Shown here piece after piece: positions 9,287-61,294 of a stretch of DNA of 64,000 nucleotides. The position numbers were made by a program, and so were the translations under genes. The DNA is from Eledone cirrhosa (taxonomy: Eukaryota), in NCBI GenBank assembly GCA_964016885.1, contig OZ024743.1:368218001-368282000 (forward strand), written 5' to 3'. Positions within the stretch are counted from its first letter, which is position 1. The number at the start of each line of letters is the position of its first letter. Below the pieces are notes generated by a model, which was not told where the DNA came from, made no database searches, and saw nothing but the letters and a program-made list of their open reading frames with translations.

Positions 9287-9289
<3 letters not shown>

Positions 9290-9680
9290 GATATTAATAA
9301 ATGGAAACTATATTTATAAAACCATATTTATTTCATTATACATATTTCAGGGATACCAAATTAAATTATGGTATGCCTTCATCAGACAAAATACAATATA
9401 TAACATTTTTGGAGGCCTCCAAAAATAATGGTTGCATTTTAAAAGGGTACGTCAAAGCTTATTTGTAAAACTGATATATATTGTATTTTGTCTGATGAAG
9501 GCATACCATAATTTAATTTGGTATCCCTGAAATATGTATAATGAAATAAATATGGTTTTATAAATATGGTTTCCATTTATTAATATCGTATATCTACTCC
9601 AAATACTTGTCGAGTGCTTTATATCAGTTATAAAAATATTTACTTGTTGTATCCCAACAATTTAAATAGAACTTTTGCAT
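9287..9680. mobile_element. Non-coding fold-back element (PLE pLTR-like) with inverted hammerhead pair H1
   Basis: Arms of about 115 bp (9287-9402 / 9475-9590), near-perfect inverted; (TA)n on both flanks. Confidence 0.8.
9484..9548 (+). ncRNA. Type-I hammerhead ribozyme H1 (antisense copy at 9329-9393)
   Basis: UAUUUUGU-CUGAUGA-AGGCAUACCA..UGGUAUCCCU-GAAA-UAUGUA-UA/AUGAAAUA; stems I and II pair; stem III near-palindromic. Confidence 0.8.
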
Positions 9681-9693
9681 ATATATATATATA

Positions 9694-12349
9694 TGCTCTA
9701 ACAGACGACAAGGACTTCCTAATCATTGCAGGAGATTTTAACGGACACGTAGGTAAACACTGCGACGGCTTCAATAGAGTACATGGAGGCCATGGAGTTG
9801 GCACAAGGAATGAGGAAGGATTCAGACTTCTAGAATTCTGCGACGCCAATGACATGTCGATATGTAACACAAACTTTAAAAAACCCGACAACCACCTGAT
9901 CACCTATAGATCAGGGGAGCACTCTAGTCAGTTAGATTTTATCCTCATCAGAGGACGTGACAGATGGACGGTCGTAAACACAAAAGCCTTCCCTAGTGAG
10001 GAATGTACATCCCAACATAGCTTAGTTGTCAGCGACCTCACGGTCAGAACTAGACGAGCCCTGAAACAGAGGCCAACCTGGAGAAGAAAGATCTGGAAGC
10101 TGAAAGTCCCCTCAACCAGTAACGGATTTAAAGATATTTTACTCAACGCCTACGACAGTAAAGAAGAACAGATAGAGACATTTAACGTAGAAGAGAACTG
10201 GGAGTTCCTAAAAAATAACTTACTAGAGGCGACGGATGAGGTTTGTGGCTGGAGTAAGACCTCAAGCAGGAGGAGAGTGACTTGGTGGTGGAACAATAAG
10301 GTAGATGAAGCAGTCAAGGCCAAGAGACAGGCATGGAAAGAATGGAAGAACGGGGGGAGCAGGGTACATTACATAGAGACCAAGAGGGAAGCTAGGCGAC
10401 AAGTATACTTAGCTAGGAGGGAAGCAGAGGATAGAAAATTCAAGCATGTTTTACAACGTGAGGACCAGAAACAGGAGGTATTCAAGATTGCGAGGCAGTG
10501 TGTCAGAGATAGTTGTGATGTCATTGGAGAGAAGTGTATCCGGAATGATAAAGGTGAGCTTGCCCTCACAAGTGCTGAGAAGAAAGATGCATGGAAGAGT
10601 CATTATGATAGATTACTAAATGAGGAGAATGCATGGGAAGAAGAGACCCTACCCCACGTAGACCCTATAGAGGGACCAGCAGTACAAGTCAGCGGCAGCG
10701 TAGTAAGTAAGGCAATCAGAGATATGAAGATAGGGAAGGCAACCGGTCCATCGGGTATAGCTGCCGAGATGCTGAAGGCATCTGGGTCTGTAGGTCACAC
10801 TATAACCACACGTATCGTTAACCAGGTAATACTAGAGGGGGCCATACCAAAAGATTGGTGCAGTAGCATCATTGTCAACTGCTACAAAGGTAAAGGCGAT
10901 GCACTAGATAGAGGAAACTATAGAGGTATAAAGTTGATGGACCAGGTCATGAAAGTAACAGAAAGAGTTATAGCACAGCTGATTAGGGACCGGGTGAATA
11001 TAGACGAGATGCAATTTGGGTTTGTTCCAGGGAAAGGCACCACTGATGCGCTCTTCCTTGTGAGGCAATTACAGGAAAAGTACCTAGCTAAAAGTAAGCC
11101 ACTCTACTTGGCATTTGTCGACCTTGAGAAAGCCTTTGACAGAGTTCCACGTGCAGTAATCTGGTGGGCTCTTAGAAAACTAGGAGTAGATGAATGGCTT
11201 GTGAAAGCGGTACAAGCCATGTATAGGGGAGCAGTCAGCAAAGTTAGGATTGGCAATGAGTATAGCGAGGAATTTAGCGTACAGGTTGGGGTCCACCAGG
11301 GCTCTGTTCTTAGCCCTCTCCTGTTCATCATAGTCCTGCAGGCAATAACGGAGGAGTTTAAGACCGGATGCCCATGGGAACTCCTGTATGCTGATGACCT
11401 CGCACTCATAGCTGAATCTATGGTAGAACTAGAGAATAAATTCCAAACCTGGAAGCAGGGACTAGAGAGAAAGGGCCTCAAAGTCAACATGACAAAGACT
11501 AAGGTCCTTATAAGTAGACGAGAAAACAGAACCCAGATCCCCTCAGGGAAATGGCCTTGCTCAGTATGTAGGAAAGGTGTAGGTAGGAACTCCATTCTTT
11601 GCCCCAAATGCAAACAATGGGTACACAAGAGATGTAGCGGGATCTCAGGAAGCTTAATTAAGAATGTAGGATTCACATGCAGCAGCTGTGCTGAAACAGC
11701 AAGCAAACAGCCACAGGAAACAAGTACCACCAATCTCTGGGAGGGCCCTGTAGAAACAGTAGACAGCTTCTGCTACCTAGGTGACCGAATTAGCAACGGA
11801 GGTGGGTGCTCAGAAAGTACAATAACTAGGGTAAGAACGGGATGGAAGAAGTTTAGGGAACTACTACCACTGCTAGCTGCAAAAGGCTTCTCCCTCAGAA
11901 TGAAAGGCAGACTGTATGATGCGTGTATCCGAACAGCGATGTTGCATGGTAGTGAGACCTGGGCGCTGAAGGTGGAAGACTTACGTAGATTAGAGAGAAA
12001 CGAAGCCTGCATGCTCCGATGGATGTGTAACAGTAATATACGTGAACGACAAAGCATAAATGAATTGAGAGAGAGACTGAGCATAAGAGGAATCAAATGC
12101 TGCGTGCAGGAGAGGCGGTTACGCTGGTATGGACATGTGATGCGTATGAAGGATGACAGCTGCATAAAAAGGTGCAGAGCACTAGAAGTTGATGGAAACC
12201 GCGGAGTGGGGAGACCCAAGATGACTTGGGATGAGGTGATAAAAGCCGACCTTACCCAACTACACCTCTCAAAGTCAATGACACACGACCGTGACTTCTG
12301 GCGTCACGCAGTAATACAGGGTACCCGACCTCCCATGGGTACATGCTGA
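9694..12349 (+). CDS. Truncated APE endonuclease + RT + PHD-like finger; open frame
   Basis: ORF 9614..12349; the first ~27 aa come from flanking DNA; GDFNGHVG, QFGF, YADD, CSVC..CPKC..HKRC..CSSC. Confidence 0.85.
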
Positions 12350-12646
12350 AGCATATAAACAATATGCCCCCCCTCCCCCACCGCAAGGTGGTCGTGGAGG
12401 TGCCACGGCAAAAAAGCACCCAGCCCACACTGTAAAGTGGACGTGTAGGCGCCACGAAAAAGCACCCAGCACTCACTGTAAATGAGGTTGGTGTTAGGAA
12501 GGGCATCCAGCTGTAGAAATCAAGCCAGATCAGTTCCTGTATGAGCAAGGCATGGTCAGCCGACCAGACACTGCCCACAACAGGACAACCCGTCTAACCC
12601 ATGCTAGCGTGGAAGAACGGACGTAAAACGGTGATGATGATGATGA
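9694..12646 (+). mobile_element. RTE-clade LINE, family A, 5'-truncated young copy
   Basis: Nearly identical to 26993-29940 (-); begins abruptly after (TA)n; 3' UTR module and (GAT)n tail. Confidence 0.95.
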
Positions 12647-12655
12647 TATATATAT

Positions 12656-12699
<44 letters not shown>

Positions 12700-12747
12700 T
12701 TGATACAATGAAGTTTCACTTTAAGTTGTTTTTTTTTTTATTGAATA

Positions 12748-12812
12748 TCGACCATTATGTACATTTCGCAGATGATTGGCTTCTGTATCAATCTGTTCAT
12801 TGGGCATGTTGA
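12748..12812 (-). ncRNA. Degenerate hammerhead-like motif
   Basis: Minus strand CCAAUGA-ACAGAU..AUCUGC-GAAA-UGUACA-UA; core mutated and stem I imperfect. Confidence 0.45.
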
Positions 12813-13239
12813 TTTGATTAAAAACAATATATATCTCAAGGGCATCCAACCTCTTACAAACCTACAGGCATTTCCTGTTTACAATATTTTCTTGTCCTTT
12901 TGTGTGGGTCAATGATGTGGGGTTTGGTTAATTAGTGGTTGAGTGTGCTTCCTGTCTTTTGGTCTTATACCAGTTGTCACTAGGCAGCTATAGAACAAGA
13001 TCCATGACACTCAGTGATAGCTACACCAGTGACAACACCAACTCCAACAATAACAGCAGCAACAACTGTATCAGTGCCAATACTCCCAGTGGGGGTAACG
13101 ATGGCATATCTCAGTAGTAGCCGAGAATGCCAGACAGTGCTATTTCAAGATTTGCTAATCTCTCATTGGTGACACCCACTCAACCAGTACTGGGATAAAA
13201 ATAGACTAGAGTCTATAAAGATTTTGTGTGATGAATATG

Positions 13240-13480
13240 TAGGCTGGATGTCTAATAATTTCCCATCAAAATTCCTGCAACGTTTCCCTTGTTTGATGAG
13301 AGGAATGGGCAGAGGCATTGCTGCCTCTGTCATGATGTTTTCCAGGGTGCTTTTCTGCTAGGTTTCTGGCTAATTTGTTTAAACCTTTTTCATAATAATC
13401 AGATGTTACTGTTTTCCTTCTCTCTAAGATGTCAACTAACAAATTATCTTCAGCATCCTTAAAAGATTTAAGATTAATAT
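13240..13480 (-). pseudogene. Mariner (Hsmar2-like) transposase relic
   Basis: Minus-strand reading resembles DAE..LLVD.LE...TVTSDYYE..L.KLA..LAEK.PGK..NA.AHSSHQTR..L.EF*WEIIRHP. Confidence 0.65.
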
Positions 13481-13704
13481 CCTTAACCTGTCTCCATCAC
13501 TTTCACTCTCTCATCAGAGTACTTTGCTGCAAATAGGTGAAGCTGTGTGGAACTAAACTGTTGTTAGTTGTTATAATACCCACGCGGATGATTTGTTTTA
13601 AGTGGTGAAGGCTTTTGTAGGGCCAGCCAGACTTTCTGGAACTGTTTATAACACAGAATCTGTGCAAATGTTTGCCACAGATACAGTGAACTCCTGTTTT
13701 ATTT

Positions 13705-15558: not shown

Positions 15559-15697
15559 TATATGTGTATGTATATATGTGTATATATATGTGTTTATATA
15601 TATATGTGTATATATATATATATATGTATATATATATTTATATATATGTGTATATGTATATATGTGTGTGTGTGTATATGTGTGTGTATATATGTGT

Positions 15698-15967
15698 GTC
15701 ATCATCATCACCGTTTTACGTCCGTTCTTCCACGCTAGCATGGGTTAGACGGGTTGTCCTGTTGTGGGCAGTGTCTGGTCGGCTGACCATGCCTTGCTCA
15801 TACAGGAACTGATCTGGCTTGATTTCTACAGCTGGATGCCCTTCCTAACACCAACCTCATTTACAGTGAGTGCTGGGTGCTTTTTCGTGGCGCCTACACG
15901 TCCACTTTACAGTGTGGGCTGGGTGCTTTTTTGCCGTGGCACCTCCACGACCACCTTGCGGTGGTCG
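15698..15967 (-). mobile_element. RTE family A, 3' UTR-only insertion
   Basis: Essentially identical to 26993-27256; tail-to-tail with the 13705-15558 copy. Confidence 0.9.
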
Positions 15968-16157
15968 TGGTGTGTATATATATATATGTATATATATGCA
16001 TATATATATATATGTATATATATGTGTATATGTATATATATGTGTATATTATATGTGTATATATATATATGTGTATATATATATGTGTATATATATATAT
16101 ATATGTGTATATATATATATGTGTATATATATATATGTGTATATATATATATATGTG

Positions 16158-16188
<31 letters not shown>

Positions 16189-23100: not shown

Positions 23101-23205
23101 CATTATTATTACTGTTATGATTGCTAGATGTATTGTTGTTTACTTCACCGTCAAATATAACAATATCTGTTTCGACACACAATTTCATATAAAAAACCTC
23201 GCTAA
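20110..23205 (-). mobile_element. Penelope-like retroelement (Neptune/Nematis-like), 5'-truncated
   Basis: PLE RT (TDKSG, PTRPVCG, SMDVVSLYPSI, GAAIG, RYVDDI) plus GIY-YIG (VVYNIRC..YIGETAR); TA/TG tracts on both sides; clade assignment from memory. Confidence 0.88.
20616..23188 (-). pseudogene. PLE RT + GIY-YIG ORF with one in-frame TGA and one 1-nt frameshift
   Basis: ORFs 22091..23188 and 20843..22066 share a frame (RPI*GRPPTITSMAKK); after a G5 run near 20850 another frame continues ELKGRK..EHARQQH..RQIREA..LNRKNEW. Confidence 0.8.
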
Positions 23206-23207
23206 AC

Positions 23208-31503: not shown

Positions 31504-31860
31504 AAGAAAAAGAGATGAAATCGAAAATGCAACTGGAGTCTTATTTTTTTTTTAAATATATATATTTATTTGGTTCCTTTACCAGTTTCGCAGTTCTTCT
31601 GCTTTTCAAAAGGTGAGTTGAGATAGAGGGTCTGTGGTTTTTCTCACAGATGTGAGAAAAACCACAGACCCTCCATCTCAACTCACCTTTTGAAAAGCAG
31701 AAGAACTGCGAAACTGGTAAAGGAACCAAATAAATATATATATTTAAAAAAAAAATAAGACTCCAGTTGCATTTTCGATTTCATCTCTTTTTCTTTATAC
31801 TTTCACTCGTGTAGGACACCTCTGTTATTTTTCATTTTGTAAAAAAAACCTCACTTTCTA
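31500..31860. mobile_element. Fold-back element with inverted hammerhead pair H2
   Basis: Arms of about 149 bp (31500-31648 / 31651-31798) with a 2-nt spacer and (TA)n flanks; second copy reversed at 59786-60111. Confidence 0.85.
31686..31723 (+). ncRNA. Minimal hammerhead H2 with U3-A8 core variant (antisense copy at 31576-31613)
   Basis: CCUU-UUGAAAA-GCAG aagaa CUGC-GAAA-CUGG-UA/AAGG. Confidence 0.7.
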
Positions 31861-31870
31861 ATAAAGATAG

Positions 31871-39683: not shown

Positions 39684-40088
39684 TTAATTTATATCATTGA
39701 TACACTTCTACATCATAGTTTAATCTCTATCAGTTACAAACTTCTACTCTATACCAGTTGCCCAGATTCATGTCATAGTTTAATTTAATCCATTAACCTA
39801 AGACAACTTAAAAACTTGCAGACTGATGTTGAATCTTGAAATATTATTGCTTAGGAAAATATATTCTGTCTAGAATTTTCATTAAAAAAAATATATTTGC
39901 TATGATATTTTATCATAATACATTGCTTCAGCTATCTAAAAATTACTTTCTTCTTGTATTGGAAAAGATGCCTATTTGGAATTTGGAAAATATGCTCAAC
40001 TGTCTATCTTATATATAATTGTATCTATATATATATATATATTATATATATATATATATATATAATATATAAAAATCAATACAATATA

Positions 40089-40166
40089 ATTACCTCATTA
40101 CCAGAGGTTTCCCGAATGAGGCGAATACAAAAGAAACGTCTTCATTCGTTCGTCAGACGAGGCAAT
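40089..40166 (-). ncRNA. Hammerhead H3 with intact core (plus copy at 43014-43091 has GAAA changed to UAAA)
   Basis: AUUGCCUCGU-CUGACGA-ACGAAUGA..UCAUUCGG-GAAA-CCUCUGG-UA/AUGAGGUAAU; 10-bp stem I. Confidence 0.85.
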
Positions 40167-41194
40167 ATAAAACATGGGTAAATACTTGGAAAGTCTCAAG
40201 AAAAGCAAAAAAAAAAATATAGACAAATGAATTAGAATATGAAATATATAAAAATCTTACAAGAAATATAGTTAGGTGTGTGTATATGTATGTATATACA
40301 TACGCTCACAGATGTGCATATATGTGTATGCACATATGTATACGTATAGTGAAAAAGTGTGCGTAAATATATAATTTAGGGCAAATGTATCTGTATCTAT
40401 AATCTACAGACAGAATAGATACATCATAAGAATATGAAGGCGCGCGCATAAACACACCTACACACACATACACTTATATGCGGAAGTAAAAGAGGTAAGG
40501 GAGTGTAATAATTAAAGGAAAGTATCAATCTCGATATATTTATAAAAATGGAACAATAATTTAGAAAGAAAAAATTAAAGAAAAGAAGACAAACAAGGTA
40601 CACACATACACACACATGTATATCTCACAAAAGAAACGCAAAAATATACATACTTATATACACATGCACACTTACACATCCATACGTTCGATACGTACAC
40701 ACACACACACACACACACACATACTTACACTCATGCATATTGACCTGTCTGCATGCACACGCATAAAAATGAGGATGTAAAAAAAGGGGAGAAGAAAAAA
40801 GAAACAAAACATAAAACCTAGATGTAAAAACACGGATATAAAGACACATACACATGCATATATATATATATACACGCGCGCGCACATACGTAGGCGCTCA
40901 TGTACATATATAGAAAGTATACACACATTAAGGCGTTCAGCCACATAGATACAGGGTGTAAAAAACTTGTGGTTAAGTAAGTGCAAATATAAAATTGTAA
41001 GATTGGCTGCGCAAAAATAAAAAATAAAAAATAAAAAATAAAAAATAAAAAATAAAAAATAAAAAATAAAAATATAAAATATCTGGAGTGGAAAACGCAA
41101 GTGACCACTGTAATCAGTTAGTGAAGGAAATAGGGAAGTAAAAAATGGAAAGTGAAGATATAGCGTTTTTAGCGAACCGATTAAATACATACCC

Positions 41195-41881
41195 AACTAT
41201 ACTAACTGGTTCACACCCCCCTACTCTCTAGCAGTTAAAACTAATGTAGGCAAAAAATTCCTAGAGCTCCTAGATAAACATTTCCCTAGAACACCAAGAT
41301 ACTATAAGATCTTTAACAGAAACTGTGTCAAAATTAGCTATTCCTGCGGTCCCCCTATTAAGTCCTATATCATCAACAAAAAATCACCTAAAGAAAATCA
41401 AACTTGCTCATGTAGAATCAAAAGTGAATGCCCATTACAAGGTAAATGCAACACCAAAGCCATTGTATATGCGGCTAAAGTGACAACCATCAGCAACAAC
41501 CATCCAGCCACCAGTGAACGATATGTGGGTATGACACAAGACAAATTCAAAACGCGTTATTACTCACATGTCGCATCCTTTCGACATCCAGAAAAAAGAT
41601 TTACAACAGCTCTGGCTAGCAGAATTTGGGATTTGAAAGACCAAGGCATCCAATATAAATTGGATTGGTCAATTTTGAACCAATCTAAAGAATATGCAAG
41701 AGGAACAAGAAAATGCACGCTCTGCATAAATGAAAAATATTGGATCTTGCAAAATCTTAAATCACCAAAGACCTGCCTGAACACAAGGACGGAAATTTTC
41801 ACCAGTTGCCCACACATGAAATCACACCTGCTTTCCAGCTCATATAAACTTAACACACTTTCAGATACTTATCCTCCATAA
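41195..41881 (+). pseudogene. PLE C-terminal linker + GIY-YIG endonuclease fragment
   Basis: WFTPPYS..KTNVGKKFL, KIFNRNCVKISYSC, CSCR..CPLQGKC, IVYAAKV..YVGMT, CTLCINEK, CPH. Confidence 0.88.
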
Positions 41882-43208
41882 ACTCTTATTATTCTCTTTA
41901 TAATTACCCCTTCTGATTTACTTTCATTTTTATCCTTATTATTAATTTCATTTATTTTTATTTTTATTTTTATATATTTTTTTATTATTTTTACTTTACA
42001 TCCACCAATAACCCCCCCCCCCCTTTATTCTCCGATTCACTTACCTAATATCTTCACTTTCCATTTTTTACTTCCCTATTTCCTTCACTAACTGATTACA
42101 GTGGTCACTTGCGTTTTCCACTCCAGATATTTTTTATTTTTATTTTTATTTTTTATTTTTGCGCAGCCAATCTTACAATTTTATAATTTTATATTTGCAC
42201 TTACTTATCCACAAGTTTTTTACACCCTGTATCTATGTGGCTGAACGCCTTAATGTGTGTATACTTTCTATATATGTACATGAGCGCCTACGTATGTGCG
42301 CACGCGTGTGTGTATATATATATGTATGTGTATGTGTATGTGTCTTTATATCCGTGTTTTTACATCTAGATTTTATGTTTTGTTTCTTTTTTCTTCTCCC
42401 CTTTTTTTACATCCTCATTTTTATGCATGTGCATGCAAACAGGTCAATATGCGTGAGTGTAAGTATGTGTGTGTGTGTGTGTGTGTACGTATCGAACATA
42501 TGGATGTTTAAGTGTGCGTGTGTATATAAGCATGTATATTTTTGCGTTTCTTTTGTGAGATATACGTGTGTGTGTATGCGTGTACCTTGTTTGTCTTTTC
42601 TTTTTAATTTTTTCTTTCTAAATTATTGTTCCATTTTTATAAATATATCGAGATTGATACTTTCCTTTAATTATTACACTCCCTTACCTCTTTTACTTCC
42701 GCATATAAGTGTACGTGTGTGTAGGTGTGTTTATGCGCGTACCTTCATATTCTTATGAGGTATCTATTCTGTCTGTAGTTTACAGATACACAGATACATT
42801 TGCCCTAAATTATATATTTACGCACACTTTTTCACTATACGTATACATATGTGCATACACATATATGCACATCTGTGAGCGTATATACATACATATACAC
42901 ACACCTAACTATATTTCTTGTAAGATTTTTATATATTTCATATTCTAATTCATTTGTCTATATTTTTTTTGCTTTTCTTGATGAGACTTTCCGAGTATTT
43001 ACCCATGTTTTATATTGCCTCGTCTGACGAACGAATGAAGACGTTTCTTTTGTATTCACCTCATTCGGTAAACCTCTGGTAATGAGATAATTATATTGTA
43101 TTGATTTTTATACATTAAATTTTGCTCTGGTACTTACATAGAGCACTCTTCACTTCTATGACCTTTTCTGTTTTCAACGGAAATTTCAATACTTATATAT
43201 ATATATGT

Positions 43209-43486: not shown

Positions 43487-43495
43487 TACAGATCA

Positions 43496-43533
43496 CGAGC
43501 TGAAGATCCGTGAAGGTGAAACAATTGTTCTCG
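43496..43533 (+). ncRNA. Solo 38-nt minimal hammerhead motif
   Basis: CGAG-CUGAAGA-UCC gugaa GGU-GAAA-CAAUUG-UU/CUCG; palindromic stem III. Confidence 0.7.
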
Positions 43534-43825
43534 GTATGGTGAACTAACTGTTGTGTAATCACTTCTATATATATATAGGCCTCTTGAGGCCCTTTGTCAC
43601 TGAAATTCGTTTGTTTGAATTCATATGATTCCAGTTCCTCAGAGAAATAACAACCTAACCAGGAACTGGACATATCAGAGTATTGACAAAATTATACACC
43701 TCAACAACATATGTACTTGTCTATACCACACTAATTCGGACTGCCTGATATAGCAGTAATAAACGAAGCTAAATTTTAAACATTTGACTTTTTATTTAAC
43801 TTTATATATAATTGTATATATATAT

Positions 43826-44048: not shown

Positions 44049-44087
<39 letters not shown>

Positions 44088-44248
44088 TTAAGGATACTAT
44101 TTATGGTTATGTATATACTAAAACCTTTTATAGTTATATATATTTTATACCCTAAATAGTGAGACAGTAATTTATTACTATCTTATTACCAGTAAGATAA
44201 ATAGCTCAATGTAACAACATCAGTTGTTTTGCAGAGCAGTTATATAGA

Positions 44249-44941
44249 GATTACATGAATCAAAGTTCTGTTTAAATCATTTATTTGCTTACAATTGTTT
44301 CTTCCAAACCGAGGTTTGGAGTCTTCGGAGTAATTATTCAGTGATTTTTAACATACTTGACCTCCTTTTCAACACAAGAGACATATAGAAACATATGTAT
44401 ATATTGACCCACAGTGGGTTGACATCCATTATAATAATATAGCATGGTAATTTACATACAAAGATTACAGTCATATTAAAGGACAAAATTAAAGTTAAAA
44501 TTAAAATAAAACATTGGTAGTTTAATAAGATAAAGCAAGAGGAAAGTTTGGAGTAGCCAGTGTATGCAAAAGTCACACGTGTGGCATGCACGCGTGTCCT
44601 ATTTATACAAGATTATAGTGCGGCAGATTGTTACATGTAAAACAAGCAGTCAAAGCAGGCAATCAAGAGCATCATGGGGGCTGTACTGGTAAAGCATTAT
44701 TCACACACACCTGTACAATATAGAAGCCCGTGTGTAGAGAAACACCAAAAATATCAAAAATATTACAAATGAGAAGCAAAACAGTCAATATATACATATG
44801 TTTCTATATGTCTCTTGTGTTGAAAAGGAGATCAAGTATGTTAAAAATCACTGAATAATTGCTCCGAAGACTCCAAACCTCGGTTTGGAAGAAACAATTG
44901 TAAGCAAATAAATGATTTAAACAGAACTTTGATTCATGTAA

Positions 44942-44944
<3 letters not shown>
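44249..44944. mobile_element. Fold-back element with inverted hammerhead pair H4
   Basis: Arms of about 160 bp (44249-44407 / 44785-44944) with an ~380-bp spacer; (TA)n downstream. Confidence 0.8.
44859..44907 (+). ncRNA. Hammerhead H4 with U4C core variant (antisense copy at 44285-44333)
   Basis: UUGCU-CCGAAGA-CUCCAAACC uc GGUUUGGAA-GAAA-CAAUUG-UA/AGCAA. Confidence 0.7.
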
Positions 44945-45190: not shown

Positions 45191-46775
45191 ATAAATTAAT
45201 AAAAACAATGAATAAAAACAAAGAAACAGTTCCTTATATTAAAAAATTCATCATTTTACGATCGTTTCTAGGATATATATGTGTGTGTTGGTATGTATAT
45301 CATATAGATCTATGTAAAGGTTTACAAACTATCAGAGGGAATATACATACCTACACATATATATGCTGTCTTCAGAAATAAATCTGAAGACAGCATATAT
45401 ATGTGTAGGTATGTATATTCCCTGATAGTTTGTCAAACTTTTACATAGATCTATCATCATCATCATCATCGTTTAACGTCCATATTCCACGCTCGCATGG
45501 GTTTGGACGGGAGTTTTCCCACTTGAGGCAAGAGTGGTTCTCATGCTCGCATAGGACTGTCTGGCGGGTTTTCTACGGCTGGATGCCCTTACTAACACCA
45601 ACTACATTTACAGTGTGGAACTGGGAGGTTTTTACTGTGTTACCTACACGGCCACATTACAGCGTGGACTGTGCGTTTTTTTGTCGTGATACCTACATGA
45701 CCTCGTTTGTTTCGGGCTGGATGTTGTGGTACCAACATAACTTTACATTGAAAGGGGTGGTGTGTATGGGGTGGGGGTAGTGGGACGGGGGTGTATTTTG
45801 TTAGAGGCGCCTACTGACTGTAGTAGGTTTCACTTTGCACTTAGGTAAGGCGGGTCTTCTCTATTACTATGTAGCGCCAAAGATCTCGGTCCAGTGACAT
45901 TGTCTTGGAGAGGTGTGTGAGGTCGGAATTTATCAAGTCGTCCCAGGTTTTTCTGGGTCTGCCTACTCCGTGGCTACCGTCTATTTTTATTGCCCTGCAC
46001 TTTTTTCTACAGCTGTCGTCTTTCATGCGCATCACGTGACCATACCAACGTAGTCTTCTCTCGAGTAAACATCTGATCCCTCTTATTTCTAATTTCTACC
46101 TTAGTTTGTTTATGCTTTGCCGTTCATGTATATTACTATTACACATCCAGCGGAGCATGTAAGCTTCGTTCCTCTCCAGTCTGCGTATATCCTCTGCACA
46201 CAATGCCCAGGTCTCACTGCCATGTAACATTGTGTTCGTATGCAGGCATCATACAGCCTGCCTTTCACTTTTAGAGAGAACCCTTTAGCGGCCAATAGTG
46301 GTATAAGCTCTCTGAACTTTTTCCATCCCGTTCTGACTTTAGCTACTGTACTTTCAGAGCACCCTCCCCCACTGCTGATTTTGTCACCCAGGTAACGGAA
46401 GCTGTCCACTATTTCTATAGAACCATCTGTGCAATGGAATGAGTTAGTATTCTGTGGGCACTTACTGCTACTTATTGCACCAGAGCACCGGCCACATATA
46501 AAATCTATATTCTTAGTTAGCTATAAAATCTATATTCTTAGTTAGTATGATATACATACCAACACACACATATATATCCTAGAAACAATCGTAAAATGAT
46601 GAATTTTTTAATATAAGGAACTGTTTCTTTGTTTTTATTAATTTATCTTGACTCTGTTTTCCTGTGTTTTTATCGAAAACATTTTGAATACATCTTCTCT
46701 TTTCATAATATTTGGATTACATTGAGTACTTCATACGGATTGGATACTACTGTATATTTTGATAGATTTATCTAC
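45191..46775. mobile_element. Fold-back element H5 interrupted by an RTE insertion
   Basis: Palindrome centred near 45379; the right arm breaks at GATCTA (about 45452) and resumes TATGATATAC at about 46546; minus-strand hammerhead at 45251-45381. Confidence 0.85.
45453..46545 (-). mobile_element. RTE family B 5'-truncated copy nested in H5
   Basis: (GAT)n tail, 3' UTR and ORF C-terminus; ~24-bp tandem duplication at the 5' junction. Confidence 0.9.
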
Positions 46776-51151: not shown

Positions 51152-51825
51152 CAGTCTTAGCCATGTTAATTTTAAGGCCTTTTGATTCTAGGCCGTGCTT
51201 CCATGTTTGGAATTTCTTCTCTAGCTCGGCCATTGATTCAGCTATGAGCGTTAGGTCATCTGCGTATAGGAGTTCCCATGGGCAGCCGGTCTTGAACTCC
51301 TCTGTTATAGCCTGAAGAGCAATAATGAATAGTAGGGGGCTAAGAACAGAGCCCTGATGGACACCAACTTTTACGCTAAACTCTTCACTATATTCGTTGT
51401 TAATTCTAACCTTGCTCACTGTTATGTTGGTGCCACAAAATCCAGGCCGAAACAAATGAGATCGTGTAGGTGTCACGACAAAAAAACACACAGTCCACGC
51501 TGTAATGTGACCGTGTAGGCAACACGGTAAAAACGTCCCAGTCCCACACTGTAAATGTGGTTGGTGTTAGGAAGGGCATCCAGCTGTAGAAAACCTGCCA
51601 GACAGTCCACGCTGTAATGTGGCCGTATAGGCAACACGGTAAAAACCTCCCAGCCCCACACTGTAAATGTGGTTGGTGTTAGGAAGGGCATCCAACTGTA
51701 GAAAACCCGCCAGACAGTCCTATGCGAGCAAGACAACCACTCTTGCCTCAAGTGGGAAAACTCCCGTCCAAACCCATGCAAGCATGGAACACGGACGTTA
51801 AACGATGATGATGATGATGATGATA
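51152..51825. mobile_element. RTE family B insertion with 5' inversion and deletion
   Basis: 51152-51423 RT fragment (-) fused at GTT to the 3' UTR and tail 51421-51825 (+), which has a duplicated 112-bp unit. Confidence 0.8.
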
Positions 51826-51958
51826 TATTGATACAATTATATATATATATATATATATATTGATACAATTATATATATATATATATATATATTGATACAA
51901 TTATATATGTATATATATATATTGATACAATTATATATGTATATATATATATTGATAC

Positions 51959-51996
<38 letters not shown>

Positions 51997-52017
51997 ATAC
52001 AATTTTATATATATATA

Positions 52018-52918: not shown

Positions 52919-52924
<6 letters not shown>

Positions 52925-53422
52925 TAATAAAAACAATGAATAAAAACAAAGAAACCGTTCCTTATATTAAAAAATTCATCATTTTACGATCGTTTCTAGG
53001 ATATATATGTGTGTGTTGGTATGTATATCATATAGATCTATGTAAAAGTTTTACAAACTATCAGGGAATATACATACCTACACATATATATGCTGTCTTC
53101 AGATTTATTTCTGAAGACAGCATATATATGTGTAGGTATGTATATTCCCTCTGTTGTTTGTAAAACTTTTACATAGATCTATATGATATACATACCAACA
53201 CACACATATATATCCTAGAAACGATCGTAAAATGATGAATTTTTTAATATAAGGAACTGTTTCTTTGTTTTTATTCATTGTTTTTATTAATTTATCTTGA
53301 CTCTGTCTTCCTGTGTTTTTCATCGAAAAAATTTTGAATACATCTTCTCTTTTCATGGTATTTGGATTACATTGAGTTCTTCTTACGGTTTGGACACTAC
53401 CGTATATTTTGGTAGATTTATC

Positions 53423-53425
<3 letters not shown>
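52919..53425. mobile_element. Fold-back element H5, uninterrupted copy
   Basis: Arms of about 185 bp centred on TCTTCAGATTTATTTCTGAAGA; (TA)n flanks; diverged partial relative at 59480-59755 (-). Confidence 0.85.
53105..53235 (+). ncRNA. Hammerhead H5 with a 100-nt stem II
   Basis: UUAUUU-CUGAAGA-CAGCAUAUAUAUGU..ACAUAUAUAUCCUA-GAAA-CGAUCG-UA/AAAUGA. Confidence 0.75.
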
Positions 53426-53462
<37 letters not shown>

Positions 53463-53524
53463 GCGCGCCATCTCACATATATATATATATTGATACAATT
53501 GTATATATATATATATATTGATAC

Positions 53525-53586
<62 letters not shown>

Positions 53587-53606
53587 GTATCAATATATAT
53601 ATATAT

Positions 53607-56600
53607 GTGAGATGGCGCGCATTTCATTTCGATAATAAAGAAGCTAAAAGAAAAATCAACTCCAATTATTTCGAAACTATCTTTAAATCCAGAAAGAATT
53701 CTCCATCCAACAAACTCCTGTAGGATTTTGAAACTGAAATGTTCAATATTCTTAAGAAAATTAAATTCAGGAAAAACCCATATATAGGTCACTAATACCT
53801 TAGAACTTTAAAAGAAAAAATCTCGGATATAAAAAAAGTTAATAAAATATTGGTAAAATTTGACAAAACAAATAATTTATATGGGATAAATAATGAAGAA
53901 TATAATGATTTGATTTTAAAAGAACTAAGGAAGAATTTATAAAAAAAGCCCCGGCCGAAGATCTTACAGACATCAATAATGATGCATATAAATTAATTGC
54001 AAAATTAGGAATTGAAGGAAGAACCGAGCCTCTTATACCTAGACAGCCGCGGATCAATTTTAAAGATCACAAAAGAAACTTTGAGGTAGACCTGCCAGTT
54101 AGACTGATTGCTCCATCTAAATTGGATATTGGAGTAATCAGTAAGAATATTGTTGATATAATTCTACCTATTTTGAAATTGAGGTCTAAATTGAGCTGGC
54201 GGAAGGACACGAATGAAGTGATTGATTGGTATAAAAATATAGATGATAAGAAAAACCATAAATTCATCCCGATGGACATAACAAGCTATTACTCTTCCAT
54301 TACGCCTAACCTACTAAATAAGGCTTTATACTATGCTTACAAACATACAGATCTAACTACGGATGAAATCGATATCATATTAACTGCTAGAAGAACTCTA
54401 ATTAATTTCAACAGTGAGTATTAGACCCGCTCAGATAGAAATAGAAACTTCGACATTACCATGGGATCATCGGACTCAGCGCAAGTCATGGATCTTCTGG
54501 GGATTTTCATCTTAAATAAGATAAATAGAAAACTGCCGGAGATTACCGGTGGTTTATATAGGGACGATATTTTATTTACGATTGTTAAACTAAAAATTAC
54601 GACCTTAAATTAGAGGTAGAAAGTGGTACCAAAATAGTTAATTTCCTTGATGTTATCCTTAACTTAAACTCTGGCTCTTATTACCCTTTCCATAAGCCCA
54701 ATGAAAACTTAAATTACGTTAGTTATTACTCTAATCACCCTAAATCTGTGAAAAACGCAATTGTCAATAGTATACAGAAACACATAACTAGAATATCTGC
54801 TAATAAATCAATATTTGATGAAAAAGCAGGATATTGCAATGAAGCGCTAAGAAAGGCAGGTTATAAAAATAATATAGAATATTTAGACAATAATAATTCA
54901 AATCCTAATCCTGATAAAAATAATAATAATAATATGACTGGCATGTATAAATGATATTCTAAAAATTATAATTCAAACACCTGTACTGTGAATAAATCGG
55001 GGAAAAGAACCAGAACTAAATCAGTTATATGGTTTGTCCCCCCCCCCCGCTTCTGTAGCAGTAAGAACACCACTAGCTATTCTATTCTTTAAGGCTTTAG
55101 ATAATTCCTTCCCTAGTCAACATAAATACCGTTCCATATTTAATAGACACACAATTAAGCTTTCTTATTCTACAACTATGAATATGGTCCAAAACATTGC
55201 TAAACTAAATAGTAGAATTCTAAACCCAAACCAGCATAATGTTGTTAATAATAGTGTTAATGTAAATAATAATAAATCGAAATGTAATTGTAGAAATAAA
55301 CCAGATTGCCCTCTGCAAAATAATTGTCTGGATAGAAATTTGGTGTATAAATGCACCGTAAAAACAAATAACAACATATACAACTACATAGGAGCAACTT
55401 CTTCGACATTTAAATCGAGATTTGCGAATCACAAATGCTCGTTTTCGAATTTTAATAGGAAGTCTTCGACTTCTTTATCATAACTTATATGGTCATTAAA
55501 AGATAAAAATTTAAAATACTCGATTTTTTTTTGGACGAAGCTTTGTAATAGTAAAATCTACTCGAACTCATCTATATCAACTAACTGCAACCTCTGCACA
55601 AAGGAGACCCTATTAATAATTACTAATTATGAAAACTTAATTAACAAAAAAAAGTGAGTTATTCTCAAACTGCCTTCATAAAGCTTTGTCTACATTCCAA
55701 GCCTCGCAAAAAGTCAGGAAAAAATACTAAACAAACGGGTTTTAATTTTTGACGTCTCTTATTAACTGTTGGGCCTAAAACGTTATAACACTTTATAAAA
55801 CTTTAATAATACTTTATTTTTAATCATTTATGATAGCGTTAATGTTAGAATGAAGGATCCTGTTTAGGTATATAAACATATTATTTGTTAACTTGTTCTC
55901 CTGATAAATATGCACACCTTTTGATTATTTCAGATATTTATGATTTAGATTCGGATCTTTATATATTTGTCTCTGCTTTAAATATATAATTTGGATATTT
56001 AACTTGTAAGATTACCGGTTATAATTAAACCGTAGATCATTCATGCATTTATATATTTTACTCATTTTGGGTAGATTTTGGGGACTCAGAAAGTTAGATT
56101 TGCACATATATATTTTTTATATATATCTAGGTATGAATATAACAAACCATACTAGTCGACAAATATTGGTCTCTCTTTTCACTGAACTGGAGCTAAAACT
56201 ACAATTATAGCATTACTAATAATGATTGTAATTATTTATTTATTATATGTATATCGTTTCACTAATACCTATAATACTCTATCTATATAGTTGTACAAAT
56301 ATGTTTATCTAGTGTAATAACATGCTTGTAGTTACATTTATAAGTAATTTAGATACTCAAATGACTCCCTATTGTTATAAGTGTTAGATATTCCCTTGAT
56401 GTTCGAAATTATATAATGATTATTACTTAATTTAATTTAATTTACTTTATTTTAATTAAAATTAAATTACCTTTGGCTTTTTCAAACCTTTAGCTCCTCT
56501 TTCTATCACATTCGCTGGACATTTTAGAAGTATCTTTTGTCTACTACATATTAAAACCCTCTTGCATTTTAAACTATATTTTTAATATTGGGCATTTTTA

Positions 56601-57697
56601 TGTTTCGCAAACAATTCATTATTTTTCACTTTTTATTTTGTATCTGGCCCTTATCCTTAGGACTCGTGTAGTTTTGACTTATATATTTATAGTATATATT
56701 TATTAAATGATCTAAACCATTAATTTTTAACAATATTTTCAGTAACTTATTCACTATATTGTATTATGTTATGTATATTTGAAAGGTATCATCATCTTAA
56801 GTCTTTAGACAATATAATATTTGTTGTTTTTGATAAACACATATATGTAATTTAAAATTCAGACCTCTTTAAGTTTAATTATAAGGCCTGTTGATCCTTT
56901 AGGCACTCAAATTGTTAATCATAAATTCTTTAAAAATTATAACTGTAATTATTTTCTAAATTATATTATATAAACTGTTGTCAATATTATAAATAATTTT
57001 GGTAAAGTTTACCTTCGTGAGGTTGTAAAAGCATTGTTTTCTTTCTCGTGTTTGTAAATCCTTTAAATTTGATTTCATAAAATTTGATTTTAGAAATTAA
57101 ATTTGATAGTATACTTTAATATTAATACGGATACCTATTAACTCTTAAAACCTAAAATATTCATTACTCTGAACTAACTAATTAAATATTTTGAATATTA
57201 ATGGTCAACCAAATAAGTTTAGTATATATATTGTTTATATGGATAATTGTCTAAAAACTTGAACATAAGTTATCCCTCTTTGTCTCTCTGTAATCAACTC
57301 TTTTGTTTTTCGAGGCCCCTACTAGCTATACTATCCCATCAGCTGTGTCTTCCTCTATGCTTTCCTTTCTTTCCTCTTTCTTCACTAATTTAAATTTTTT
57401 TAACTGTTATATTGATGCCAAGTATTTTTTAAGCTGTCTCATACGCACCCTCTCTATTGTATGTATTATATATTTTTCTCATGTTCTCAATATTAAGGTA
57501 TATAAATATTGAGTTTTTTCATATATTACTCACTATCACGACTGAATCTTAACCATCTACTGTGTCAGGGTATGTCATGCATCATCTTATTTTATCTGAT
57601 GAGGACGTACTGTTGAAGTTAACTCAGTACCTCTGAAATATGTATAATAAAATATACATGATCACAAGAATATCTATTTTGTTAATATTTAGAATTA
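53607..57697 (+). mobile_element. Naiad-like PLE, degraded ORF at about 53607-55730, with ~2-kb AT-rich 3' region ending in a hammerhead
   Basis: RWRAF, KDHK..PVRLIAPSK..GVISK, MDITSYYSSI, FDITMGS, GLYRDD, CNCR..CPL..CL, LVYKC..YIGAT; linking the 3' region to the ORF is inferred. Confidence 0.85.
57588..57654 (+). ncRNA. Hammerhead H6 (antisense copy at 57813-57879)
   Basis: UAUUUUAU-CUGAUGA-GGACGUACUG..CAGUACCUCU-GAAA-UAUGUA-UA/AUAAAAUA. Confidence 0.85.
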
Positions 57698-57945
57698 ATA
57701 TATATATATATATAATTGTATCAATATATATATATATATTGATACAATTATATATATATATATATATATTAATTCAAAATATTAACAAAATAGATATTCT
57801 TGTGATCAAGTATATTTTATTATACATATTTCAGAGGTACTGAGTTAACTTCAACAGTACGTCCTCATCAGATAAAATAAGATGATATATATATAATAAG
57901 ATGATAATATATATAATAAGATGATGCATATATATATATTGATAC

Positions 57946-58001
<56 letters not shown>

Positions 58002-58050
58002 ATATAATTATATATATATTGATATAATTATATATATATATATATATATA

Positions 58051-59210
58051 TGAAAAAGAACACAAGAGCGTCTACAACATCAAAAGATTTTTATTGGCTT
58101 ACAATGTTTCTTCCTTACGTAACCATAGGATTCGTCAGAGCTATAAAAGGGGTTTGATTGGTGTTATGGACTCTACCAACCAAACATTCAAGAACAAAGA
58201 GTAAAGAGCAAAAGTAGGGGACGATAAGTCTAATTTTGGTGCATCTGCTGTGCATCTGCTGTGGTGTCAAAAACAAACGCACATGACCGCACAGATAAAC
58301 AATGGACCATGCCACGTGGCTTGAACCCGTAAGTGAGTTGAAGGTTCTGCAACTCTGATACACAGATTATTTATTATTAAGATGTATAAACTTGACATAA
58401 CTATTATCATCTTATATTCTCTCAACTAATCACACTTGATCATATTTCTCTATCCCGTTTTCTCCCCCCATAATTATTATATTTTTATTATTATTTGAAA
58501 AAAATCGGTTTTTTTTTTACATTGTGTTTTCCCCTCCAAGTATTCGCTTATATTTCTTTATATATTCTCTATATATATTTTTTTATCTTTATTATTTCCA
58601 CTTCTATCCTCCTTTATATTTTACCTTATTCTTACTTTTATACCTTATTATAGTGTAATCTTCCCCATGCCTTATTATACACTATTAATTATAGGTTATT
58701 ATTATTACTCTTTTTCCATTTCTAATTACCTCATGTACTTTCTCCTCCGCTATATATATATATATATATATTGTATGCCCTTTGTGTTTGTGTAGCCTCT
58801 GCGCACCCTCTGCACCATACTATCGACGCCACCCCATCTATGGTTCAGCTAACCACCTGACTCCCGGGAATGAATATGACCGCAGCTAGTAAACAAGGAC
58901 CCACACCCCACCCTCCCACACCAAAATTACACTTATCGTCCCCTACTTTTGCTCTTTACTCTTTGTTCTTGAATGTTTGGTTGGTAGAGTCCATAACACC
59001 AATCAAACCCCTTTTATAGCTCTGACGAATCCTACGGTTACGTAAGGAAGAAACATTGTAAGCCAATAAAAATCTTTTGATGTTGTAGACGCTCTTGTGT
59101 TCTTTTTCATATATACGGGTCTGCTCCAAAGCATAGAGCTAATTATTATGCTGCCAATACCTTAATGGGACACAGGTATACAATACCTAACTCCTATTAA
59201 CCTAAGTATT
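58051..59210. mobile_element. Fold-back / inverted-pLTR element with hammerhead pair H7
   Basis: Arms of about 180 bp (58051-58229 / 58932-59110) with an ~700-bp spacer; (TA)n flanks. Confidence 0.82.
59012..59071 (+). ncRNA. Hammerhead H7 (antisense copy at 58089-58148)
   Basis: UUUUAUAGCU-CUGACGA-AUCCUACG..CGUAAGGAA-GAAA-CAUUG-UA/AGCCAAUAAAA. Confidence 0.75.
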
Positions 59211-59260
59211 TATATATATATATATATATATATATAATTATATATATATATATATATATA

Positions 59261-59301
<41 letters not shown>

Positions 59302-59334
59302 ATATAATTATATATATATATATATATATTGATA

Positions 59335-59371
<37 letters not shown>

Positions 59372-59374
59372 ATA

Positions 59375-59415
<41 letters not shown>

Positions 59416-59418
59416 ATA

Positions 59419-59459
<41 letters not shown>

Positions 59460-59749
59460 ATATAATTATATATATATATAGATAAATCTACCAAGAGTTT
59501 ACGGTAGTGTCCAATCCGTATGAAGAACTCAATGTATTCCGGATATCATGGAAAGAAGAGATGTAATGAAAAATCACTTTCGGTGAAAGATAAACGGTAT
59601 ACAGAGTCAAGATAAAATATTAAACAAATAATGAATAAAACAATGAAACAGTTCCTTATATTAAACAAAAAAAGTTCATTATTTAACGATCGTTTCTAGG
59701 ATATATATGTGTTAGAATTGGCATGCATATTCAACAGATCTATGTACAA

Positions 59750-59785
<36 letters not shown>

Positions 59786-59793
<8 letters not shown>

Positions 59794-60111
59794 GTGAGGT
59801 TTTTTTTACAAAATGAAAAATAACTGAGGTGTCCTACACGAGTGAAAGTATAAAGAAAAAGAGATGAAATCGAAAATGCAACTGAAGTCTTATTTTTTTT
59901 TTAAATATATATATTTATTTGGTTCCTTTACGGGTTTCGCAGTTCTTCTGCTTTTCAAAAGGTGAGTTGAGATGGACACAGACCCTCCATCTCAACTCAC
60001 CTTTTGAAAAGCAGAAGAACTGCGAAACTGGTAAAGGAACCAAATAAATATATATATTTAAAAAAAAAATAAGACTTCAGTTGCATTTTCGATTTCATCT
60101 CTTTTTCTTTA
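59786..60111. mobile_element. Second H2 fold-back copy (hammerheads 59925-59962 on -, 60000-60037 on +)
   Basis: Same sequence as 31500-31860 in the opposite orientation, with a different fold-back junction. Confidence 0.85.
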
Positions 60112-60322
60112 TATATATATATATTGATATATATATATATATTGATATAATTATATATATATATATTGATATAATTATATATATATATATTGATATAATT
60201 ATATATATATATATATATATATTGATATAATTATATATTTATATATATATTGATATAATTATATATATATATATATATTGATATAATTATATATTTATAT
60301 ATATATATATATATTGATATAA

Positions 60323-60353
<31 letters not shown>

Positions 60354-60376
60354 ATTGTATCAATATATATATATGT

Positions 60377-60411
<35 letters not shown>

Positions 60412-60481
60412 ATGTGGGTAATATTAAATATTATCCAATTACAAGTATGAGAATAGCTCAATGTATATTACAGAGCCGACA

Positions 60482-60996
60482 TACTTTATAAATAATAATC
60501 AAAGAGTGTTTAGAACATTTAATCACTTACGATTGTTTCATCCTAGCACAAGGCCAGAATCATCAGAGTATATAATAAAGGTTAAAAGACAAATATAATA
60601 TCAGAAGTTTGTCATAAGAACATTAGGAGGATACATAATATTGGAAGTAAGCATAAGTATCAACATTTATATAAGAAATGATAGCAAAGGTAGAAGAAGC
60701 ATATGAAAAATATGAGCATATAAATGCAATAAAATAAAATTAGGATCAGCTAAAAGCATTAAAAATTTAAAAATCATGCTGCTATAGAGAAACATGCCTT
60801 TGCCATCTTTTCTTATATAAACTTATGCTTACTTCATATATTGTGTTTCCTCCTTATGTTCTTATGACAAACTTTTGATATTATATTTGTATTTCAACCT
60901 TTATTATATACTCCGATGATCTGGTCTTGTGCTAGGATAAAACGATCATAAGTGATTAAATGTTCTAAACACTCTTTGATTGTTATTTATGAAGTA
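60482..60996. mobile_element. Older fold-back element with hammerhead H8 (60524-60570 on - has intact core; + copy degenerate)
   Basis: Diverged arms of about 200 bp; minus strand UACU-CUGAUGA-UUCUGGC..GCUAGGAU-GAAA-CAAUCG-UA/AGUG. Confidence 0.7.
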
Positions 60997-61021
60997 TATA
61001 TATATATATATATATATAAAT

Positions 61022-61294
61022 AAGGAGCAGGAATGAAGTATCAATATAATATCATTATGTTTATTCACATGTGGCAACCAGCTCAAGGTACGATCAGTAA
61101 TGATCAAGCCTGACTCTGGAATTGACAACTTATCAGATTTATAGATTCTTGAAAATTCACAAGTCTAATGAGCTATTGATTTCAGATTTAGACACGATCA
61201 CTACCAATTGTACTTTGAGCTGATCGATCGTGAAATACATGTCACATGTGAATAAACATAATGATGTTATATTGATACTTCATTCCTGCTCCTT
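61022..61294. mobile_element. Old ~270-bp fold-back with decayed hammerhead core
   Basis: Outer ~54-bp arms nearly perfect; CACAAGU-CUAAUGA..GAAA-UACAUG-UC/ACAUGUG on +, CUGAUAA on -. Confidence 0.6.

Follow-up and report, generated by a model that had tools for sequence, protein, structure and literature searches.

The stretch analysed here (hereafter the window) comprises 64,000 nucleotides of the Eledone cirrhosa genome (G000:C4:368218001-368282000, forward strand; assembly of 3.0 Gb) and holds a series of hammerhead-bearing fold-back insertions at (TA)n tracts. We are confident, judging from the sequence, that these insertions are stubs of Penelope-like elements (PLEs): they are new families of the known Hydra- and Neptune-type PLEs, 5'-truncated and lying in (TA)n, and not a new class of mobile element. 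For the inverted arms we favour, with a probability of roughly 0.6, a reading in which the fold-back is made at insertion, both strands of a nicked TA target priming reverse transcription at two fixed UA motifs in the RNA of a single source element. No published account of two fixed internal priming sites was found in the literature searched, of which coverage was partial.

Fixed arm ends and scattered 5' ends

The nine motif families were named after their window positions in kb (F9.4, F31.7, F40.1, F43.5, F44.9, F53.1, F57.6, F59.0, and F60.5). Genome searches gave 141-2463 candidates per query, of which 40 were scored and the best-scoring 30 fetched, and end positions were numbered from the predicted hammerhead cut (+, 3' side; -, 5' side). 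In each family the outer limits of the arms proved constant: one arm extends to the tail end and the other stops 64-160 nt short of it, at an inner site, both limits adjoining (TA)n. The tail and inner ends were, respectively, +143 and about +79 for F31.7, +196 and +66 for F53.1, +147 and +49 for F59.0, +206 and +40 to +50 for F44.9, +126 and +42 to +48 for F60.5, and +138 and +48 for F9.4 (values of the window copy), and both are fixed TA motifs. The 5' ends were scattered, from -12 to beyond -1499 in F59.0, from -21 to beyond -1495 in F44.9, and from +48 to -1433 in F53.1. With a tail of 64-160 nt on one arm and with varying centres, the fold-backs lack the symmetric terminal inverted repeats around a fixed centre by which a miniature inverted-repeat transposable element (MITE) or fold-back DNA transposon is recognised. 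In the full-length F31.7 copy, L335, the tail end at +143 is followed by TATATA and the first ATG stands at +171, the inner end at +79 lying within TATA; in F59.0 the sequence continues from the tail end into a leader before the start codon. Both arm ends are therefore internal to the RNA leader in these two families.

The reach of the two arms was tallied for 55 fold-backs (120 loci, four families; F31.7, with 1 row and a misplaced anchor, was left out). In 19 of them the 5' reach of the tail-less arm exceeded that of the tail arm by more than 15 nt, in another 19 the tail arm was the longer, and 17 were level. Snap-back of the target-primed tail strand, from which no longer tail-less arm would be expected, was ruled out for the 19 cases showing one. 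The same cases bear on the proposal that single stubs were inserted first and that repair of the DNA, where (TA)n tracts are fragile, added the inverted arms afterwards. This is very improbable as a general account, since the tail-less arm holds element sequence absent from the other arm in 19/55 fold-backs and its outer end is fixed per family genome-wide. Local inverted duplicates do occur in the window (45191-45454, 57769-57886, and 53458-53477, plus a 99.6% identical inverted pair of RTE-type copies), and repair would cover these few only.

The two arms of an insertion were concordant at subfamily sites in F31.7 (63/64) and F53.1 (44/48, with 20.4 expected); a wider F31.7 count gave 247/368 against 215.5 expected, a figure in which the signal is diluted by the inclusion of six T/A-run columns that are hypervariable and of a number of repeated rows. 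At +23 to +34 of F31.7 (window about 31742-31755) there is a T-run followed by an A-run, their total length nearly constant, whose boundary differs from copy to copy and, in many cases, from one arm to the other of an insertion that is otherwise identical.

Many copies consist of the tail arm alone, with TA at both ends. A two-family head-to-head join was found for 1 of the 23 classifiable F31.7 arms; at L031:5298-6550 a Neptune-type F31.7 arm is joined head to head with a Hydra-type F43.5 copy. Arms belonging to a single insertion could be very unequal, as in F59.0 at L143 (-804 versus -28) and F31.7 at L337 (a full-length arm versus one of 1.2 kb). The full-length, tail-less copy at L337 begins at about +144, the priming site of the tail arm, as though one of the cDNAs had followed a circle until it met the other; this is one case, which microhomology also explains.

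No pile-up of 5' ends was seen at the predicted cut site (in F53.1, 4/30 at +7 to +11 and none at +1). The stubs continue straight across that site, and their templates would thus have been uncut or re-ligated. A pile-up of F53.1 ends at -124 to -133 (18/30) was considered as a start site and dropped, since it was caused in part by where the query began and by insertions of a short interspersed nuclear element (SINE); with a tail-only query it comprised 9/30 ends, on a 14-nt near-palindrome. A SINE is found in L068, L069, L073, L080, L091, L111, and L115, each time at the same TTATT, which lies at the 5' edge of stem I in the F53.1 hammerhead. These are independent insertions with different 5' ends and short target duplications (5/30 loci, more with the tail-only query), and the same SINE lies at window 9014-9196 and 61295-61607.

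Parent elements and hammerhead-type motifs

Open reading frames (ORFs) for reverse transcriptase (RT) and GIY-YIG were traced for 7/9 motif families, six Hydra-type and one Neptune-type, two of the parents (F57.6, 53607-57698, and F40.1) being inside the window; the clade calls rest on domain order and on linker and RT motifs. Together with the widely varying 5' ends, this supports the proposal, made in a first-pass annotation, that the insertions are 5'-truncation products of many PLE families. A colinear Neptune-type ORF for RT and endonuclease (EN) lay upstream in 20/30 long F31.7 copies (Pfam RVT_1, E=2e-6; GIY-YIG, E=1e-6). A tie to a Hydra-type ORF was found in 4/4 long copies of F44.9, in L099 and L228 for F53.1, and in 3/30 copies of F59.0. 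Since these three F59.0 copies continue into the Hydra-type ORF, a Neptune-type ORF 3.1 kb upstream in L224 was dropped as a parent of that family.

In the Hydra-type parents the RT is followed by a C-terminal GIY-YIG domain (window 53.9-55.7 kb, L099, and L291-L293); in the Pfam search GIY-YIG was weak (E=0.008) and RVT_1 was missed in all of them. They have DKT in place of DKG (window F57.6, L099, L293, and L149) and a CxCX5C linker (window F57.6 and F40.1, L099, and L293), the first Cys of which is absent from the L031 copy. The N-terminal motif is RWR in the F59.0 parent and RWK in a neighbouring Hydra-type ORF of L292, the region being missing from the other traced parents. The Hydra clade is further marked by an EN lacking the CCHH motif, a trait that was judged here by eye on the translations. 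Nearly all tail ends adjoin TA or related dinucleotide runs. The Neptune-type traits, i.e., a CX2-5CxxC linker, DKG, GxKF, and GIY-YIG at the C terminus, are present in the translations of L330 and L331. In the Neptune-type elements L335:5193-6269, L337:5140-6369, and L224:5763-7064, the RT ORF is preceded by a separate one of about 400 aa, read in a different frame and overlapping with it.

Hammerheads were sought with a type-I descriptor (core plus stems I-III, permitting one mismatch at the stem II base, U3-A8, or U4C). In its relaxed form it matched 14 sites in the window, against a mean of 0.5 (maximum, 2) in 40 block-wise dinucleotide shuffles, and in a stricter form 10, against 0.05. 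It was loosened after the sites had been viewed, and the identical descriptor was applied to the shuffles. Eight of the nine motifs proposed at first pass were matched (cores 9492+, 31690+, 40156-, 43500+, 44864+, 53111+, 57596+, and 59022+). The ninth, F60.5 (core 60566-), failed because of a stem III altered in the window copy; its relatives retain a palindromic stem III. For two further motifs called decayed, the outcome was mixed: the candidate at 12748 is readable only in its 3' half and had no matches among the fetched loci, while the one placed near 61160 belongs to a real fold-back at 61.1 kb with arms 67-71% alike, in which the 3' half of the motif is readable near 61233.

The motif occupies the same place in every traced family. 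Its covariation was determined for the F9.4/F57.6 group only, in 26 sequences gathered by sequence alone (26/31 representatives thinned from 117 BLAST-gathered relatives). The core columns CUGA, G8, and GAAA were invariant, and 94.5% of the pairing cells paired in register, versus 35-56% when slid; the accompanying shuffle test is inflated by kinship among the sequences. Stem covariation, put forward earlier as a check on the ribozyme call, was found in stem II, where 7/9 pairs had changed on both sides, and not in stem I, where 0/8 pairs were compensatory and the changes were one-sided. The self-duplex energy of the stem III strings was below 0 in 8/9 motifs. Contrary to the description of the motifs as sequence-unrelated, F9.4 and F57.6 are 76% identical over 73 nt. 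A sister family of F31.7 (L095, L255, L321, L082, and L317) has GCAA replacing the GAAA core element, plus U3-A8.

Could the motifs be chance matches in AT-rich DNA? An Rfam scan of the window had no hammerhead family among its 115 matches up to E=5, scoring the fold-backs against microRNA (miRNA) models, always under the curated thresholds, and the satellite L314 gave 18 false-looking matches with the relaxed descriptor. As regards the motif call, chance is nonetheless contradicted by the excess over shuffles, by the invariant core with its compensatory stem II, and by the constant place of the motif, and we give it next to no credence. The hammerhead-type motifs are thus real sequence motifs, of which the catalysis is predicted.

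Their density, which had seemed unusual, was only about twofold above that of the sampled genome background (36 10-kb stretches positioned at round coordinates). There, 25 matches were obtained with the strict descriptor, i.e., 4.4 per 64 kb, versus 10 in the window, and 61 with the relaxed one, or 43 without the satellite L314, i.e., 7.6 per 64 kb, versus 14; the Poisson tails, which do not allow for the pairing of motifs, were 0.016 (strict) and 0.025 (relaxed without the satellite). By extrapolation, the genome may hold roughly 2-3.6 x 10^5 motifs, far above the 2,000-9,000 per genome given in the relevant passages of Cervera and De la Pena 2014 (PMC4209133), whose descriptors differ.

Origin of the fold-backs and the recurrent F31.7 junction

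In the reading we favour, the GIY-YIG endonuclease would nick both strands of the palindromic (TA)n target, and each nicked 3' end would pair with a fixed internal UA motif in the fashion of a telomerase template. The two cDNAs, copied from the RNA of one source element, would stop early and independently of each other, and their ends would join head to head via 1-15 nt of complementarity. Cleavage by the hammerhead is expected in dimers only, where the RNA has two terminal repeats; poor cutting of the monomer and cutting of such a dimer would fit the stub data.

An alternative is that a single cDNA self-primes into a hairpin off the chromosome, which the GIY-YIG endonuclease opens at the TATA motifs of the element, one per strand, before it is joined to (TA)n. 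This route, close to the ideas of self-priming and EN resolution put forward in passages of PMC3846280 and PMC8557442, would account for the identical variants in both arms, the ends at TA motifs, the tail on either side of the F31.7 junction (described below), and the 17/55 near-symmetric junctions. However, it requires snap-back over loops of hundreds to thousands of bases in the unequal fold-backs of L143 and L337, leaves the two-family join of L031 unexplained, and does not sit well with the many lone tail arms joined to TA at both ends. We regard it as unlikely, if quite conceivable.

The junction near 31648 of the F31.7 fold-back recurred as an exact 32-nt match at 334 loci, against 0 in the control. 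Among the first 30, all of which lie on C1, it was carried by five haplotypes, each with the tail on both sides (overall 18 right, 10 left, and 2 none), and both arms carried the haplotype of their locus. The 17 copies nearest to the second F31.7 window copy (59787..60110) had differing junctions. Among the tail-anchored F31.7 copies, 14/30 stopped at -69 to -72, and the same boundary was found in single-arm copies; a repeated 5' end was present in 3/30 junction copies. TATAAAA begins 30 nt upstream of this boundary, and CATAAAA stands at that position in six diverged relatives (72-74% identical) that extend this far. Other diverged relatives stop at the homologous base despite different flanking letters. 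The boundary at -72 is thus likely an RNA 5' end, probably a transcription start.

According to the two-site priming reading, both F31.7 cDNAs would often reach this RNA 5' end, where transcription, driven by the TATA box, would start 72 nt above the cut. Joined through an overlap of 2 nt, they would give the same junction repeatedly. Given its five haplotype backgrounds, the occurrence of the tail to the left or to the right, and the match of both arms to the haplotype of the locus, the junction should have had at least five origins, and its recurrence apparently arose by convergence. The sharing of one exact junction by 334 loci, the fixed outer ends, and the lack of an ORF would also suit a non-autonomous, self-propagating mini-element, retrozyme- or MITE-like, copied whole by PLE proteins. 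These multiple origins, however, together with the 5' boundary shared by single-arm copies and diverged relatives, the other junctions of the 17 copies, and the lack of an upstream TATA box in the unit, have already weakened that explanation, which we consider improbable.

The first-pass annotation had offered retrozyme-like elements mobilised in trans as one possibility, with junction sharing as the test of self-propagation. No head-to-tail hammerhead units or tandem array were found at the window sites, and the shared-junction test would mislead here, because the F31.7 junction was shared across five haplotypes and both positions of the tail. A weaker form of trans mobilisation may apply to F31.7, the stubs of which halt at a fixed promoter-like 5' end: the template may be a short ORF-less transcript moved in trans or else the leader of the full-length RNA.

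Several points weigh against two-site priming or against the identification of its sources. The copy sets are the best-scoring 30 of 141-2463 candidates and are thereby biased toward young copies. A longer TA run at +12 to +22 of F31.7 does not serve as an end, so that the choice of priming sites is not made by pairing alone. Post-insertion conversion between the arms could explain their concordance, the rare two-family joins (1/23 F31.7 arms) might be later deletions, and an endonuclease-opened hairpin cDNA also predicts symmetric arms with shared variants. The first pair of stem II (G10.1-C11.1) is G-C in 1/9 motifs, A-U or G-U in 2/9, and unpaired in 6/9, and the minimum-energy folds of the monomers are mostly without the three-way junction, so that the activity of the hammerheads may be low. 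The tie of F43.5 to a Hydra-type ORF rests on one copy (L031), that of F60.5 on a single EN fragment upstream in 1/30 loci, and for F9.4 no parent ORF was found among the fetched genomic copies.

Features of the window and relation to known elements

The window has a G+C content of 37% and is packed with RTE-type long interspersed nuclear elements (LINEs), SINEs, and (TA)n tracts; its PLE-related features are listed in Table 1. The description of the elements as ORF-less inverted pairs did not extend to F57.6, with its RT and EN, to F40.1, with its ORF fragment, or to F43.5, which is unpaired. The two families noted at two loci each proved to differ: the F31.7 copies have different junctions, whereas the two F53.1 copies share one, with 2 matches in the genome, both in the window and 8 kb apart. 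Because this junction was found nowhere else and a private 2-nt deletion is common to both, the F53.1 copies are most likely a local duplicate.

Table 1. PLE stubs, parents, and candidate motifs in the window
Feature	Positions	Strand	Remarks
F9.4 fold-back stub	9289..9678	+	hammerheads on both strands, cores 9492+/9385-; predicted cuts after 9540/9337; tail right
Candidate decayed motif	12694..12830	-	3' half only
F31.7 fold-back stub, Neptune-type PLE	31504..31862	+	U3-A8 cores 31690+/31609-; junction near 31648; tail right
F40.1, 5'-truncated Hydra-type PLE plus inverted copy	40066..43193	+	3.1-kb insertion; RT-thumb/EN ORF fragment 41156-41878; motif intact on inverted arm (core 40156-), GAAA changed in forward copy
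F43.5 single 78-nt stub	43488..43565	+	core 43500; same end trails Hydra-type ORF in L031
Stub of a further hammerhead family	43582..43810	+	motif deleted in window copy, intact in relatives
F44.9 fold-back stub, Hydra-type PLE	44086..44943	-	U4C core 44864+ on tail-less arm; tail left
F53.1 fold-back, inverted, probable local duplicate	45191..45454	-	core 45375-; RTE tail adjoins
Older stub, F53.1-related (89%)	46546..46775	+	
F53.1 fold-back stub, Hydra-type PLE	52919..53425	+	100-nt stem II; core 53111; predicted cut after 53229
F57.6, decayed Hydra-type PLE	53607..57698	+	4.1 kb: DKT, RT, CxCX5C linker, GIY-YIG, 3' untranslated region (UTR) of about 2 kb, core 57596, then (TA)n
F57.6 end, inverted duplicate across TA tract	57769..57886	-	core 57871-; tail to tail
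F59.0 fold-back stub, Hydra-type PLE	58053..59207	+	cores 59022+/58138-; tail right
Older stub, F53.1-related (81%)	59479..59756	-	
Second F31.7 fold-back	59787..60110	-	own junction; core 60004+; tail left
F60.5 older fold-back stub	60411..60993	-	core 60566-, stem III changed; parent weakly Hydra-type
Old fold-back	61022..61294	.	motif half-readable near 61233

A further Penelope-like RT (weak RVT_1) is represented at 20846-23206 on the minus strand by two long pieces of its ORF, with relatives in L095 and L098; from its motifs, this RT is presumably Naiad-like. A piggyBac-like transposase fragment (DDE_Tnp_1_7, E=9e-10) is found at 37346-37963 (+). Copies of an RTE-type LINE with a PHD finger, 99.6-100% identical, form inverted pairs (9696-12640/26997-29938 and 12378-12643/15699-15964), which, judging by that identity, are very young insertions or local duplications. 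TA tracts interrupted by a regular 10-nt variant and flanked by small inverted duplications (51823-52017, 53426-53606, 57698-58051, 59207-59484, and 60110-60374) would reflect local amplification or an assembly effect.

The Hydra clade of PLEs with a C-terminal EN was defined by Craig et al. 2021 (PMC8557442; Hydra-1_Obim in the supplement), where hammerheads and insertion into (TA)n are described, together with a tail and a 5'-truncated copy in inverted orientation, and the mechanism is stated as open. The Hydra-type elements of the window agree with those passages in the order of RT and GIY-YIG, DKT, the CxCX5C linker, the (TA)n target, and the presence of a hammerhead close to the 3' end, of a 5'-truncated inverted copy, and of a tail at one end. 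They differ in size, exceeding 4 kb (F57.6, 4.1 kb though truncated; the F44.9 parent, >4 kb) with 3' UTRs of 1-2.4 kb, where that source has generally <3 kb, and in tails of 64-160 nt versus the 30-40 bp it gives for Naiads. From Neptune-type PLEs (the Zn-finger linker clades Neptune and Nematis), our Neptune-type elements differ by the separate upstream ORF.

Opposite-strand hammerhead pairs 100-700 bp apart were read as truncated PLEs in the pertinent passages of PMC4209133, which also report a U3-A8 variant, low dimer activity, and a proposed circular template, as well as a Schistosoma motif that cuts poorly as a monomer, and as a dimer only where two terminal repeats are present. The window motifs resemble these minimal PLE hammerheads in the short stem I, the palindromic stem III, U3-A8, the many families per genome, and the opposite-strand pairs; unlike them, six of nine have an unpaired stem II base and one has a stem II of 100 nt. 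Non-LTR retrozymes, presented as tandem PLE derivatives in the passages concerned of Li et al. 2026 (10.64898/2026.07.22.740005), are likewise ORF-less, with a type I hammerhead, and derive from PLE terminal repeats. They are arranged head to tail, whereas the window units are head to head and continue into the UTR and ORF of their own family (7/9 families). The locus L308:636-2400 (G000:C4:250.0 Mb) holds a head-to-tail array of three 592-bp units and, in addition, one inverted copy. Each unit has a U3-A8 hammerhead whose stem II is long, and the same motif is present in L321. This array is a better retrozyme-like candidate than any element of the window.

For other PLEs, passages of PMC3846280 describe a tail overlapping the ORF start and a putative TATA box in the terminal repeat, and propose self-priming. 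The TATA-driven start suggested for F31.7 differs from the promoter of Drosophila Penelope, which is internal and TATA-less in the account of PMC2377424. The passages on octopus repeat annotation in PMC13282606 make no mention of hammerheads or ribozymes.

The fold-backs of the window may be set beside those of L1. In twin priming of L1, the second target strand primes inside the RNA, which leads to a 5' inversion with microhomology at the junction. Second-strand priming within the RNA, inversion, and microhomology would be common to both systems. In L1 the two parts are non-overlapping and the internal site is variable, whereas the arms described here overlap, both being copies of one stretch, and each family has a constant internal site.

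As the discovery of a new element these results carry little weight, since hammerheads, inverted copies, and TA targeting have already been described for these clades. PLEs are the closest relatives of telomerase RT, and the origin of their tail and inverted copy is stated as open in the passages of PMC8557442 that treat it. From the fixed internal TA ends, the 19:19 symmetry of the arms, and the source variants common to both, precise predictions can be drawn for an in vitro system. They also hold a warning for annotation, in that hundreds of identical ORF-less hairpins, apparently arisen by convergence, may be misfiled as MITEs, retrozymes, or miRNA hairpins. Tentatively, and with the odds against so broad a claim, PLE RTs might resemble telomerase in their priming: short UA templates within a single RNA, which is possibly a circle made by the ribozyme, would be used at two fixed sites, each serving one strand of the target. 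This rule would cover the tail, the inverted copy, and the pseudo-long terminal repeat, and a TATA-driven, uncut short RNA would then yield hundreds of identical hairpin insertions by convergence and not through copying of themselves. If it is true, the genome would be a collection of >10^5 natural reaction products from which the mechanism could be mapped.

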